The notes under the pieces are model-generated. The model was not told the origin of the DNA. It worked only from the letters and a program-made list of their open reading frames with translations, and did not search any database. Below are positions 42 to 5,744 of a DNA stretch of 5,744 nt, piece by piece; within the stretch, counting starts at the first letter, position 1, and each line of letters begins with the position of its first letter. The DNA comes from a virus (taxonomy: Duplodnaviria > Heunggongvirae > Uroviricota > Caudoviricetes): the IMG/VR virus record IMGVR_UViG_2529292908_000002, one strand, 5' to 3'. Both the position numbers and the translations under genes were made by a program.

Positions 42-2279
42 ATGCAGGAAAACCGCTGGGATGAGGAGTCTGCTTCCTTTGTCCCGGTTGAGACTGAATC
101 CGATCCGATGAACGTCACTTTTGACAACCTAGCCCCTGAAGTACAGAACGCTGTCATGGTTAAGTTCGACACATGTGAAAACATCACCGTTGATATGGTG
201 ATTAGCGCACAGGAATTGTTGCAGGAAGACATGGCAACATTCGACGGCCACATCGTTGAAGCGTTGATGAAAATGCCAGAAGTTAACGCTATGTATCCGG
301 AGCTTAAGCTGCATGCCATCGGGTGGGTTAAGCATAAATGTAAGCCTGGTGCCAAATGGCCCGAAATTCAGGCAGAGATGCGCATCTGGAAAAAAACGTC
401 GCGAAAGGTGAACGCAAGGAAGCCGGAAAATACACGTCTGTTGTTGATCTCGCCCGCGCCAGAGCCAATCAACAACACACTGAAAAATTCAACAGGAAAA
501 ATCAACCCGGTCATTGCTGCCATTCATCGCGAATACAAGCAGACATGGAAAACACTGGATGACGAACTGGCCTACGCTCTCTGGCCTGGTGATGTGGATG
601 CCGGAAACATTGACGGCAGCATCCATCGCTGGGCAAAAAATGAAGTTATCGACAACGACCGCGAAGACTGGAAGCGTATCTCGGCATCAATGCGCAAACA
701 GCCTGATGCCCTTCGCTACGACCGCCAGACTATTTTTGGCCTTGTCCGTGAACGTCCGATCGACATTCACAAAGACCCCGTGGCACTGAACAAATACATC
801 ACTGAATACCTGACTACAAAGGGCGTGTTTGAAGATGAAGGAACAAATCAGAGCGCAACTGATACTCTCTCGTCGCCAGTACCAGAAACTGATGCAGTGG
901 AAACGGCAATTCCAGACAACGAAAAAACCGAATGCAAAGTGGAAGTCGAACCATCTGTAGAGCGTGAGGGGCCGTTCTATTTCCTCTTCGCAGATAAGGA
1001 CGGAGAAAAATACGGTCGCGCAAACAAACTTTCTGGTCTGGATAAGGCACTGGCTGCTGGCGCCACTGAAATCACAAAAGAAGAATATTTTGCCCGAAAA
1101 AATGGCACATACACGGGCTTACCGCAAAATGTAGATACCGCTGAAGACTCAGAACAACCAGAGCCGATAAAAGTTACCGCTGACGAAGTAAACAAAATTA
1201 TGCAGGCAGCCAATATCAGCCAGCCTGACGCCGATAAGTTGCTTGCTGCATCACGTGGTGAATTTGTTGAAGGGATTAGTGACCCGAATGATCCGAAATG
1301 GGTTAAGGGGATCCAGACCCGCGATTCTGTGAACCAGAACCAGCATGAATCGGAACGGAACTACCAAAAAGCGGAACAAAACAGCCCAAATGCGTTACAA
1401 AACGAGCCAGAAACGAAACAGCCTGAATCAGTGGCGCAACAGGAAGTGGAAAAAGTCTGCACCGCCTGCGGTCAGACCGGCGGCGGTAACTGCCCTGATT
1501 GTGGCGCGGTAATGGGCGACGCAACATACCAGGAAACATTCGATGAAGAGTATCAGGTTGAAGTTCAGAAAGATGATCCGGAGGAAATGGAAGGCGCTGA
1601 ACATCCACACAAGGAGAACACTGGCGGCAATCAGCATCACGATAGCGATAATGAAACTGGCGAGACGGCAGATCACTCAATTAAGGTGAACGGTCATCAC
1701 GAAATCACATCCACCAGCAGGACGTGTGACCATCTAATGATCGACCTTGAAACCATGGGAAAAAATCCTGATGCCCCGATCATCTCAATAGGTGCAATAT
1801 TTTTCGATCCGCAAACCGGAGATATGGGACCGGAATTTAGTAAGACTATCGATCTGGAAACTGCTGGCGGAGTCATTGATCGGGACACCATTAAATGGTG
1901 GCTTAAGCAATCACGCGAAGCGCAATCGGCCATTATGACCGATGAAATCCCGTTAGATGATGCACTGTTACAATTGCGGGAATTTATCGACGAAAACTCC
2001 GGTGAATTTTTTGTTCAGGTCTGGGGAAATGGAGCCAACTTCGACAACACGATTTTGCGCCGTTCATACGAACGGCAGGGGATCCCCTGCCCGTGGCGTT
2101 ACTACAACGATCGCGATGTACGCACAATCGTTGAGCTGGGGAAAGCCATAGACTTCGATGCCAGAACGGCTATTCCATTCGAAGGTGAGCGCCATAATGC
2201 ACTTGATGACGCCCGTTACCAGGCAAAATACGTTTCAGTTATCTGGCAAAAACTGATCCCGAGTCAGGCTGATTTTTAA
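42..2279 (+). CDS. Prophage RecE (exonuclease VIII)-family protein with a C-terminal DnaQ-like DEDDh 3'-5' exonuclease domain; may extend upstream of the window
   Basis: Uninterrupted 745-codon ORF. C-terminal ~180 aa (about 1737..2279) carry the three DEDDh motifs: MIDLETMG (Exo I), GNGANFDNTIL (Exo II), HNALDDARYQAKY (Exo III). The central segment DADKLLAASRGEFVEGISDPNDPKWVKGIQTRD and the upstream LNKYITEYLTT region match what I recall of E. coli Rac RecE. A CxxC-x7-CxxC motif sits at 1458..1502, embedded in an acidic low-complexity linker. No in-frame stop between position 3 and the ATG at 42, and no obvious RBS, so the true start may lie upstream. Confidence 0.8.
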   Translation: MQENRWDEESASFVPVETESDPMNVTFDNLAPEVQNAVMVKFDTCENITVDMVISAQELLQEDMATFDGHIVEALMKMPEVNAMYPELKLHAIGWVKHKCKPGAKWPEIQAEMRIWKKTSRKVNARKPENTRLLLISPAPEPINNTLKNSTGKINPVIAAIHREYKQTWKTLDDELAYALWPGDVDAGNIDGSIHRWAKNEVIDNDREDWKRISASMRKQPDALRYDRQTIFGLVRERPIDIHKDPVALNKYITEYLTTKGVFEDEGTNQSATDTLSSPVPETDAVETAIPDNEKTECKVEVEPSVEREGPFYFLFADKDGEKYGRANKLSGLDKALAAGATEITKEEYFARKNGTYTGLPQNVDTAEDSEQPEPIKVTADEVNKIMQAANISQPDADKLLAASRGEFVEGISDPNDPKWVKGIQTRDSVNQNQHESERNYQKAEQNSPNALQNEPETKQPESVAQQEVEKVCTACGQTGGGNCPDCGAVMGDATYQETFDEEYQVEVQKDDPEEMEGAEHPHKENTGGNQHHDSDNETGETADHSIKVNGHHEITSTSRTCDHLMIDLETMGKNPDAPIISIGAIFFDPQTGDMGPEFSKTIDLETAGGVIDRDTIKWWLKQSREAQSAIMTDEIPLDDALLQLREFIDENSGEFFVQVWGNGANFDNTILRRSYERQGIPCPWRYYNDRDVRTIVELGKAIDFDARTAIPFEGERHNALDDARYQAKYVSVIWQKLIPSQADF

Positions 2280-2340: not shown

Positions 2341-2437
2341 ATGAGCGAACAGTACCTGATAACGCTCGACGAGTGGAAACCAAAACGGTTCAGTCTCCCA
2401 ATAACAAACACTACCCTGGTGAAATACGGAAAACTAG
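2341..2437 (+). pseudogene. xis: Excisionase (lambda Xis family), 5' fragment (codons 1-32), interrupted by the IS5 insertion
   Basis: ATG at 2341 preceded by GGAG at 2329..2332. Translation MSEQYLITLDEWKPKRFSLPITNTTLVKYGKL resembles the lambda Xis N-terminus (MYLTLQEWNARQRRPRSLETVRRW...). The frame runs into IS5 and stops at 2458..2460, giving a 39-aa truncated product. Confidence 0.75.
2434..2437. repeat. Target-site duplication CTAG (left copy) of the IS5 insertion
   Basis: CTAG immediately abuts the left inverted repeat and is repeated at 3633..3636. IS5 is known to make 4-bp duplications at YTAR targets. Confidence 0.85.
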
Positions 2438-2453
2438 GGAAGGTGCGAACAAG
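2438..2453. repeat. IS5 left terminal inverted repeat
   Basis: GGAAGGTGCGAACAAG; matches the right end in reverse complement at 15 of 16 positions. Confidence 0.85.
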
Positions 2454-2460
2454 TTCCTGA

Positions 2461-3498
<1,038 letters not shown>

Positions 3499-3616
3499 CG
3501 CCAGAAATGGTGGAAAAAATAGCCTAAATAGGCTGATTCGATGTGTTTGCGGGAAAAAAATCGGCCCAGATCCGCGAAATTTTAATCAGCGAGTCAGCTT
3601 GGGAAGAAATGACCTG

Positions 3617-3632
3617 CTTATTCGCACCTTCC
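3617..3632. repeat. IS5 right terminal inverted repeat
   Basis: CTTATTCGCACCTTCC, reverse complement GGAAGGTGCGAATAAG. Confidence 0.85.
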
Positions 3633-3636
3633 CTAG
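3633..3636. repeat. Target-site duplication CTAG (right copy) of the IS5 insertion
   Basis: Directly follows the right inverted repeat and is identical to 2434..2437. Confidence 0.85.
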
Positions 3637-3809
3637 GATACATCGTTCCAAGACCACAAAAAATTCGTGGGCGTTGGCTGATAGATCGCCGAGCAGTATT
3701 TGTTGGGCCTGGTGAAACGGGAATTGCGCCGGAAATTCATACTGGCGATGATGATGCACTGAAGGAGATTTTAACTCATGTCACCGAGGCCACGAAAAAA
3801 CAGCACTGA
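3633..3809 (+). pseudogene. xis: Excisionase (lambda Xis family), 3' fragment, separated from its 5' part by IS5
   Basis: Frame from CTA GGA at 3633 gives LGYIVPRPQKIRGRWLIDRRAVFVGPGETG...KKQH, stop at 3807..3809. Removing IS5 plus one CTAG copy joins it in frame to 2341..2437, restoring an 89-aa Xis-like ORF. The 3' end overlaps the int start by about 30 bp, as in lambda. The Met at 3543 in the ORF track lies inside IS5 and is fortuitous. Confidence 0.75.
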
Positions 3810-4895
3810 CGTAGCCGGTCTTTACGAAAAGTTTGATCGCAGAACTGGCAGAGTTTACTACCAGTATAAAAATCCTGTGACTGGAAAATTTCACGGACTC
3901 GGAACAGACAAAGGTAAGGCAGAAAAAATCGCTTCCACAGCCAATCAGCGAATAGCTGCAGCAGAAGCTGAATATTTCATGCGCAAAATTGATGAAAGTC
4001 CGTCAGCAACAAAACGTCGGGGTATCAGATTAAAGGCATGGGTTGATCGATATCTGAAAATACAGGACACGCGACTGAAAAATGGAGATATTGCAGCTAC
4101 AACTCACAAAGAAAAACTCGAATGGCTGCATACCTGGTTTCCCGTCTGGGAAACCACCCATTGAAAGAACTGGAAGTAAGAGACTTTGCATTAATACTGG
4201 ATGAGTGGCTGGATAAAGACATGGTCAGCACAGCGAGAGTAAATCGTGGATTATGGGTTGATATTTATAAAGAAGCACAGCATGCAGGGGAAGTTCCTCC
4301 TGGATGGAATCCTCCGGAGGCTACCCGTAAACCGATCCCTAAAGTAACCAGAGCCAGGCTCACCATGGAAGACTGGCAAAAAATTTACAATGCAACGCCT
4401 GAAAAACACTTTATCCGTAACGCAATGCTTCTTGCGATTGTTACTGGTCAGCGCCGTGATGACATTTGCCACATGCGTTTTTCAGATGTGTGGAACGAAC
4501 ACTTGCATATCACCCAGGGAAAAACCGGAATGCGTCTGGCGTTACCGCTTACACTACGCTGTGATGCCATTGGGATAACGTTAAAAGAAGTTATTGATGG
4601 GTGCCGAGACAGAATATTAAGTCCATATCTAATCCATAGTCGGCACCAGAAACAACCGAAGCCGATGAGTAAAGACAACCTGAGCGACTACTTTGCCAAA
4701 GCACGGGATCTGGCTGGGATAATTCCACCAGCAGGAAAAACTCCGCCAACATTTCATGAACAACGCTCTCTATCAGAACGGCTGTACCGTGCACAGGGTA
4801 TCGATACAAAAACATTACTAGGACATAAAGTCCAGGCAACCACCGATCGCTATAACGATACTCGAGGTCAGGAATGGGTTAAGCTGGTTATTTGA
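3778..4895 (+). pseudogene. int: Lambda-type tyrosine integrase, frameshifted at about 4135..4150 (two ORFs, 3778..4164 and 4122..4895)
   Basis: N-terminal part (YQYKNPVTGKFHGLGTDK) resembles the lambda Int arm-binding domain (YCYRDPRTGKEFGLGRDR). C-terminal part aligns with the lambda Int catalytic domain: LAIVTGQRRDDICHMRFSDV vs lambda LAVVTGQRVGDLCEMKWSDI, PPTFHEQRSLSERLY vs PPTFHELRSLSARLY, LGHK...YNDTRGQEW vs LGHK...YRDDRGREW. The two halves sit in frames 1 and 3, overlapping at tggtttcccgtctgggaaacc; restoring one C or T in that run would give WFPRLGNHPLKEL, which aligns with lambda AIRRGLPDAPLEDI. Confidence 0.85.
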
Positions 4896-5119
4896 CAAAC
4901 ACCATATGGAATATCCGTCACCATCTCAGGAAAAAAGTGTTGTAAAATGCGTGGCCTAGTTTTGGGGAAACGTTTTGGAGAGATTTTGGAGAAAGGAAAA
5001 AATTGAATAAATTCAAAATCCTGAAAGTGCTCCACCTTATGAATAATCAGGTGATCCACTTCCCGGAGCACCACTGGAACCACCTGAAACAAATGTCATC
5101 GAATGGGTATGTGCACCGG
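4896..5119. other. Candidate phage attachment region (AT-rich, non-coding) downstream of int
   Basis: In lambda the att site lies just beyond the int 3' end. This 224-bp stretch is AT-rich, has no convincing ORF, and ends abruptly where J-like homology begins on the opposite strand. The core site cannot be pinpointed from sequence alone. Confidence 0.4.
4959..4995 (+). repeat. Three tandem direct repeats (GTTTTGGGGA / GTTTTGGAGAGA / TTTTGGAGAAAG), candidate integrase arm-type binding sites
   Basis: TTTTGGAGA occurs at 4973..4981 and 4984..4992 (11-bp register); TTTTGGGGA at 4960..4968. They sit about 65-100 bp past the int stop, which is where lambda has its tandem P' arm sites. Confidence 0.35.
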
Positions 5120-5744
5120 CTGTCCCCATGCATTTACCGCCCGGACTGTCAGCCTGTAATTTCCCAGCGCCAGCTGCGTGAAGCGATATGTGGTTTCCGT
5201 CGTCCGGGCCGTGCTGACCAACCGCTCACTGCCGTCGTCCGCTGCCACGGTCAGGCGAAGCATAAAGCTCACCCCCTTCACCACCTTCGGCGTGTCCCAG
5301 CGCGCCAGCACCTGGTATTCCCCGCTGTCTGCGGTGACTTCTGCGGTCAGGTGCTGAACTGCTGGCGGCGTGACACCATTCACCGTGCCGCTCTGGTCAC
5401 CGTCAAAGTGCGCCCCGTTATCAGTTCATCCAGCGCGGCTGCTTTGTTCATGGCTTTGATGATATCCCGTTTCAGGAAATCAACATGTCGGTTTTCCAGT
5501 TCCGGAAAACGCCGCTGCACCGACAGGGGATCCCGTCGAGAATACTGGCAATTTCACCTGCGATCCGCGACAGCACGAAAGTACAGAATGCGGTTTCCAC
5601 CACTTCAGCGGAGTCTCTGGCATTTTTCAGCTCCTGTGCGTCGGCCTGCGCACGCGTAAGTCGATGGCGTTCGTACTCAATAGTCCCTGGCTGGAGATCT
5701 GTCTCGCTGGCCTGCCGCAGTTCTTCAACTTCCCGGCGCAGCTT
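5120..5744 (-). pseudogene. Phage tail-tip / host-specificity (lambda J-like) gene remnant, 3'-truncated and frame-disrupted; continues beyond the window end
   Basis: Minus-strand translation of about 5120..5420 reads DNGAHFDGDQSGTVNGVTPPAVQHLTAEVTADSGEYQVLARWDTPKVVKGVSFMLRLTVAADDGSERLVSTARTTETTYRFTQLALGNYRLTVRAVNAWGQ, which matches a segment of lambda J as I recall it. Homology stops after NAWGQ at about 5120. Upstream (5420..5744) the protein-like reading frame changes twice (near 5420..5426 and about 5470..5480) and no longer resembles lambda J. Confidence 0.6.

Follow-up and report, generated by a model that had tools for sequence, protein, structure and literature searches.

Organisation of the contig

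The DNA analysed here, called the window below, is a stretch of 5,744 bp that makes up the entire contig AIFX01000045.1 of assembly GCA_000249635.2, the 2012 draft of E. coli DEC6C. This strain belongs to phylogroup A and ST10 and is typed as O111:H12 (PMC8923075). The layout was obtained from the listing of open reading frames together with Pfam scans and alignments with relatives (Table 1; runs of identical bases are written as A5, G4 and so on). The window shares with lambdoid prophages the gene order xis-int-att, and its closest relatives are Qin-like prophages that reside at the potB/potC junction in about 1,600 complete E. coli genomes. The integrase of the close relatives is encoded by a single 372-aa gene (WP_000074983.1). 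The exonuclease, annotated as EHV63732.1 in the source, shares 99.5% identity with that of strain ZH48.

Table 1. Features of the 5,744-bp window
Feature	Position	Strand	Basis
Prophage exonuclease gene (exo; YdfE/Rv2179c-like 3'-5' exonuclease), 3' part; gene cut by the contig end	1-2279	+	Pfam PF16473
Three private +1 A insertions in exo: 390-396 (A7 vs A6), 402-404 (A3 vs A2), 479-483 (A5 vs A4)	390-483	+	
Excisionase gene (xis), 5' part, broken after CTAG 2434-2437	2341-2437	+	Collinear with the intact 270-nt xis of O104:H4 and ZH48
IS5-family element, ISKpn26-like, 1,195 bp	2438-3632	+	Pfam DDE_Tnp_1 and DUF772; boundaries by sequence inspection
xis, 3' part, overlapping the start of int	3633-3809	+	Homology to intact xis
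N-terminal ORF of int, 128 aa: native codons 1-113 up to 4116, then 15 out-of-frame codons, stop at 4162-4164	3778-4164	+	ORF, Pfam, repair test
Frameshift site, A5 run (A6 in intact homologues)	4112-4116	+	Alignments, repair test
Remaining int, codons 114-372, in the -1 frame	4117-4895	+	ORF, Pfam, alignment to lambda Int 1z1b
att arm nearest int, with core motif TGAATAA at its end; homology switch at 5041-5046	4896-5046		Alignments
Fragment of the tail-tip J gene (Ig_J domain; J'), as in Qin-type remnants	5096-5383	-	Pfam PF24421
nohA (Nu1-like small terminase subunit), truncated at the contig end; ORF broken at a G4 run (5522-5525)	5380-5744	-	Sequence matches

The IS5-family element that interrupts xis, a rare insertion, has a target duplication of 4 bp, CTAG, at its two ends (2434-2437 and 3633-3636), carries its transposase in an ORF at 2506-3498 and matches a copy in strain 720632 at 99.8% identity. 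Its transposase gene lacks a T of the canonical ISKpn26 at 3468/3469, which alters the last residues and yields an ORF of 330 aa as compared to the canonical 326 aa; in strain 720632 this allele is annotated as 'frameshifted' by the NCBI pipeline. The 330-aa variant is genuine and widespread: 162 blocks of the contig collection contain an identical product, among them two further copies from DEC6C. The right junction between the IS and xis is found in five further assemblies, GCA_002522425.1 and that of run SRR3957094 among them. As one of the five carries an int that differs by 2%, the site may be a recurrent target of IS5, or else the segment may have been moved by recombination.

Downstream of int the window takes a course of its own. 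In every other assembly examined int and the att arm are followed by potC, whereas the window (5037-5053) enters instead a Qin-type J'-nohA remnant. The switch from the potB/potC-site prophage to the J' remnant falls inside the att core motif TGAATAA, at the bases GAATAA (5041-5046). Other strains carry the J'-nohA remnant next to a tail-fibre fragment, at a distance of about 0.5 Mb, and the Qin site (TTAGAATAATCAGGTG) resembles the att core (ATGAATAAGAAGGTG). The junction could have arisen by an Int-mediated event at a secondary att site, either an insertion or a large inversion, or the contig could be chimeric at this point. Looking up the 74-aa ORF that spans the int-J' junction returned no record, a look-up of the J' fragment returned canonical Qin contexts only, and the 39-aa product of the truncated xis likewise had no record. 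As neither the junction ORF nor the truncated xis was found, these look-ups yielded no independent assembly, either of DEC6C or of its junction.

A single A is missing from the integrase gene

The two ORFs of int lie in different frames, the second being -1 relative to the first, and overlap by 43 nt (4122-4164). The catalytic ORF (4122-4895) encodes 257 aa and starts at an ATG that corresponds to Met116 of the intact protein. The arm-binding domain Arm-DNA-bind_1 (PF09003) was detected on residues 1-65 of the product of ORF 3778-4164 with an E value of 5.9e-22, and the catalytic domain Phage_integrase (PF00589) on the product of ORF 4122-4895 with an E value of 1.1e-18; in the deposited sequence the two domains do not occur in one continuous frame, the split being located at 4112-4116. 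Alignment with lambda integrase (PDB 1z1b) places VTGQRRDD, QGKTG, FHEQRS, LLGHK and DRYND opposite the lambda motifs, and the Arg-Lys-His-Arg-His-Tyr residues are all present.

The lone gap in the alignment with the intact int genes of O104:H4 2009EL-2071 and ZH48 maps to an A-run, which reads gAAAAAc in the window (4112-4116) and gAAAAAAc in both intact genes. Inserting one A at this position restored a protein of 372 aa that is 100% identical to WP_000074983.1, and the repaired protein aligned with lambda Int (1z1b) over residues 26-371 with an E value of 4e-54. A T or a C added to the nearby TTT or CCC run also opened an ORF of 372 aa, but with 9-10 wrong residues at positions 114-123.

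These results bear out much of the original prediction, namely that the halves of a lambda-type integrase lie in different, overlapping frames, that a one-base, -1 frameshift at a homopolymer separates them and that the intact Int is of about 372 aa. The lesion itself had been assigned to the C-run or T-run at 4139-4144, which proved wrong, since the missing base is an A in the run at 4112-4116, just upstream of the interval flagged (4120-4165). Restoring a C or a T does open the full-length frame, as had been claimed, and yet the protein so obtained is mistranslated at residues 114-123. It was the comparison with homologous integrase genes, proposed along with the prediction, that identified the missing base.

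The gene thus repaired shares with lambda integrase (PDB 1z1b, 1z1g, 1p7d) the three-part architecture, the two Pfam domains and the aligned catalytic motifs, and differs from it in using an attachment site at the potB/potC junction, in its modest identity and in its split ORF. With respect to the prophages that encode WP_000074983.1 (Qin-like, at potB/potC, in O104:H4 2009EL-2071 and ZH48) the DNA of int is identical save for the one A, whereas the surroundings differ in that the xis of the window is cut by an IS and its int is followed by the J'-nohA remnant rather than by potC. Judged by its domains and motifs, and leaving aside the continuity of the ORF as deposited, we regard the gene as an ordinary lambda-family tyrosine integrase.

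Other runs of this gene vary in length as well. The G4 run at 4287-4290 is also recurrently mis-sized in public assemblies, which gives rise to a family of truncated products of 189 or 190 aa, and the NCTC assembly UGAS01 has a G4 to G3 frameshift of its own in int (at about 5897 of that sequence), further upstream.

The A5 allele is confined to one draft contig on its haplotype

No exact match to the A5 allele, searched as an 81-nt query centred on the site, was found in about 1,590 complete E. coli genomes that carry int, and among the matches listed for this query all span 82 nt, the length expected of A6. A second local haplotype of int exists in which AAAAAACCC replaces AAAAAACTC, and the A5 form of this second (CCC) haplotype had no exact match among the same genomes either. 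Phase variation at the A-run was rejected on these grounds. Scans for the exact patterns of the A5 allele and of the left xis::IS junction found neither in genome_contigs (one genome per bacterial or archaeal species), in viral_contigs or in metagenome_contigs. Two induced phages of the INPHARED collection carry the same int, at intact length and not followed by the downstream sequence of the window.

The assemblies that share the right IS-xis junction serve as sister assemblies of the window. The site is reached in four of the five, and all four carry A6, a 372-aa int and potC downstream. From position 3608 to the att-core junction at 5046, the assembly of run SRR3957094 shows zero substitutions relative to the window, the A-run being the sole difference, and GCA_002522425.1 shows one substitution, which is located in the IS end. 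Hence, among the complete genomes and the sister assemblies, the A5 state on the haplotype of the window is private to one draft contig.

The two-ORF form could in principle be functional, if programmed -1 ribosomal frameshifting or transcriptional slippage at the A-run produced the full-length Int in addition to a separate Arm-domain protein. The break does occur at an A-run and both ORFs are open over the 43-nt overlap, as recoding would need. Yet a conserved two-ORF arrangement, the outcome that the original prediction had set against its own reading, is seen in 0 of about 1,590 complete genomes, in which intact 372-aa genes are the rule. By inspection, the zero-frame codons CAC AAA GAA AAA CTC contain no X XXY YYZ heptamer at or near the site, and the run is of only 5 A, as compared to the A/T run of about 9 or more taken as the criterion for transcriptional slippage. 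Five A's are too few for efficient slippage of RNA polymerase. As the form is not conserved, a slippery heptamer is lacking and the run is too short, we rejected programmed recoding, the chance of which we consider close to nil.

Run-length changes elsewhere in the contig and in the assembly

The 5.7-kb contig contains four further private single-base changes of run length, three of them in exo and one in nohA. The three +1 A insertions in exo lie within 94 nt of each other and recode about 29 codons, after which the frame is regained, so that the ORF appears intact. None of these insertions occurs in 3,920 records (6,670 places) of complete E. coli genomes, where the best identity over 228-nt spans was 98.7%. 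In nohA the G-run at 5522-5525 is G4, as opposed to G5 in nearly all homologues, and the Nu1-like gene is split into two called ORFs; the G4 allele was found in 9 of 4,006 complete-genome records. Relative to the nearest relatives, the int and J'-nohA segments together show 0 substitutions and two indels, and the exo segment shows 8 substitutions and 3 indels. The exo changes are within about 500 nt, and the nohA change within about 220 nt, of the contig ends, and both are probably due to poor consensus quality there.

A mutator strain was considered as a source of these changes and dismissed, since a genuine density of about 1 indel per kb would imply many private substitutions, of which the int and J'-nohA segments have none.

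Alternatively, the contig may be a consensus in which paralogous prophage copies were collapsed or joined as a chimera, the frameshift resulting from mixed reads. Its composition would fit, as it consists only of repeated prophage and IS sequence and ends in the multi-copy genes exo and nohA, and its int-to-J' junction is unique, being present in no other assembly. However, int is a single-copy gene (a median of 1 place per genome), which leaves no paralogue to mix, and the int of the window is otherwise identical to one known haplotype. In addition, the parental sequences share only 6 identical bases at the junction, too few for a mis-join by overlap. We therefore consider a collapsed consensus to be a very improbable cause of the frameshift.

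To judge the assembly beyond this contig we used two large DEC6C contigs, AIFX01000038 and AIFX01000063, which were reached via the other IS copies of the assembly and compared with K-12 MG1655. Over 29.4 kb aligned, the differences amount to 12 substitutions and 5 deletions of one base each. The deletions are all in long runs, with one among the 27 runs of 6, three among the 13 runs of 7 and one among the 3 runs of at least 8 (5 of 43 runs of 6 or longer in total), whereas 0 of more than 21,000 shorter runs were altered. Two of the five lie upstream of uvrB, 210 nt apart, and neither is present in 5,425 complete genomes, the best identity there being 99.3% with two gaps. The assembly of DEC6C thus under-calls long runs systematically, and the change of A6 to A5 in int is of the same class. 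A further one of these deletions, T7 to T6 at about position 11707 of AIFX01000038.1, lies inside the equivalent of K-12 ybhM and changes the 3' end of that gene; it is probably another false frameshift of this assembly.

Sibling drafts in the AIF*/AIG* accession series carry private homopolymer deletions relative to their clone-mates, namely A8 to A7 in the exo of DEC2A and A6 to A5 in the xis of DEC2C. The DEC drafts, those of Hazen et al. from 2012, were reportedly made largely by 454 pyrosequencing.

Sequencing error or mutation

Errors of homopolymer length of the pyrosequencing type are a known artefact of draft genomes and yield false frameshifted genes. The change in int resembles them in being a private one-base change confined to a run of 5-6 or more, in the recurrence of the same error class at conserved loci elsewhere in the assembly, and in that all the long-run changes are deletions. 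The three insertions in exo near the contig end, in runs of 2-6, differ in this respect, as they are not typical long-run under-calls.

That either a real mutation or a homopolymer error of sequencing must be at work had been stated correctly from the outset. The accompanying claim that sequence cannot separate the two causes is true for the window alone; data from outside it, that is the private allele and the same-class changes in the assembly, favour error. Based on the private allele, the four other run-length changes in the contig, the long-run deletions in the assembly and the errors of the sibling drafts, we propose that the frameshift in int is a homopolymer under-call in the DEC6C draft rather than a property of the DNA of the strain, and that the A5 run of int most likely belongs with the errors described above. 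The true gene of DEC6C would then read A6 at 4112-4116 and would encode an intact 372-aa tyrosine integrase of the lambda type, the same as WP_000074983.1.

The error rate per run for runs of length 6 in the DEC6C assembly is a few percent (1/27), whereas a genuine slip in any one A6 run would probably have a chance of a few tenths of a percent, as estimated from 0 substitutions in about 1.4 kb relative to the sister assembly together with published run-length slippage rates. Weighing the one against the other, and taking into account the poor quality of the contig, we put the probability of an under-call at roughly 0.8. The call is a statistical one, and the prior per run of length 6, being only a few percent, is not large.

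The main competing explanation is that a genuine and very recent -1 slippage from A6 to A5 inactivated int in the prophage of DEC6C as part of its decay. A-runs are natural hot spots of slippage. The insertion in xis is genuine, being common to five other assemblies, and selection on int is probably relaxed as a consequence. In addition, five data sets of the DEC2 lineage, of which some are otherwise clean, show A6 to A5 on another int haplotype, while the finished genome of E2348/69, of DEC2's lineage, has A6. Against this, the allele of the window is found in one draft contig only and in none of the complete genomes, and sister assemblies are the same save for this base. Four more private run-length changes within 5.7 kb give a ratio of indels to substitutions that far exceeds natural divergence, and the assembly has systematic long-run deletions at conserved loci. 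A real mutation is accordingly unlikely in our view, though it deserves more weight than any other alternative considered here. Were it real, DEC6C would make only the 128-aa Arm-domain fragment and its prophage could no longer excise or re-integrate.

The exact 128-aa product of the window was found in ten contigs of the Logan set (assemblies of public runs), on diverse and unrelated chromosomal backgrounds, and further run-length errors lie nearby in eight of the ten, which likewise speaks for a sequencing error. The second haplotype presents a different picture. The change of A6 to A5 on this haplotype (AAAAACCC) is present in the drafts DEC2C, DEC2A and AIGY01, which have neighbouring accessions, as well as in four contigs from early public SRA runs. 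Some of these public-run contigs are otherwise clean, SRR094159 even resolving an A8 run, and both B2-like and B1-like chromosomal flanks are represented among the contigs with the second-haplotype A5. On that haplotype A5 may be genuine in the lineage concerned, or else the site is systematically miscalled. The public runs may also be the DEC2 and AIGY01 drafts' own data and would then not be independent; independent runs, by contrast, would make the site a real slippage hot spot in some lineages. That the A6 run of int is a true mutational hot spot, at which the DEC2 O55:H6 clone, the AIGY01 strain, DEC6C and several public-run strains have repeatedly lost int, is a doubtful proposition, to which we give lower odds than to a single slip in DEC6C. 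If it held, it would imply a parallel grounding of the potB/potC-site prophage, possibly selected because it stabilises cargo such as dicB and relBE, among others.

Returning to the under-call that we favour, int is a pseudogene as deposited and would probably be intact in the strain.

Implications

A false frameshift of this kind splits a working integrase into two hypothetical fragments in the databases, here EHV63735.1 and EHV63736.1, and the drafts of DEC2A, DEC2C and AIGY01 contain the same split. Counts of pseudogenes and of prophage decay can be inflated by such fragments in comparative studies based on early draft genomes, and the main relevance of our finding lies accordingly in quality control.

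If the frameshift were real, the locus would resemble cryptic prophages whose integrase genes are pseudogenes (intQ of Qin in K-12, for instance), as a defective lambdoid prophage locked by the loss of both int and xis. Those pseudogenes are lineage-wide and are confirmed in finished genomes, whereas that of the window is private to one draft contig. Most likely, then, the split corresponds to no real biological feature of the prophage; even if real it would be an ordinary one, adding one more integrase pseudogene in a defective lambdoid prophage, and what is understood of the integrases would be unchanged by either outcome.
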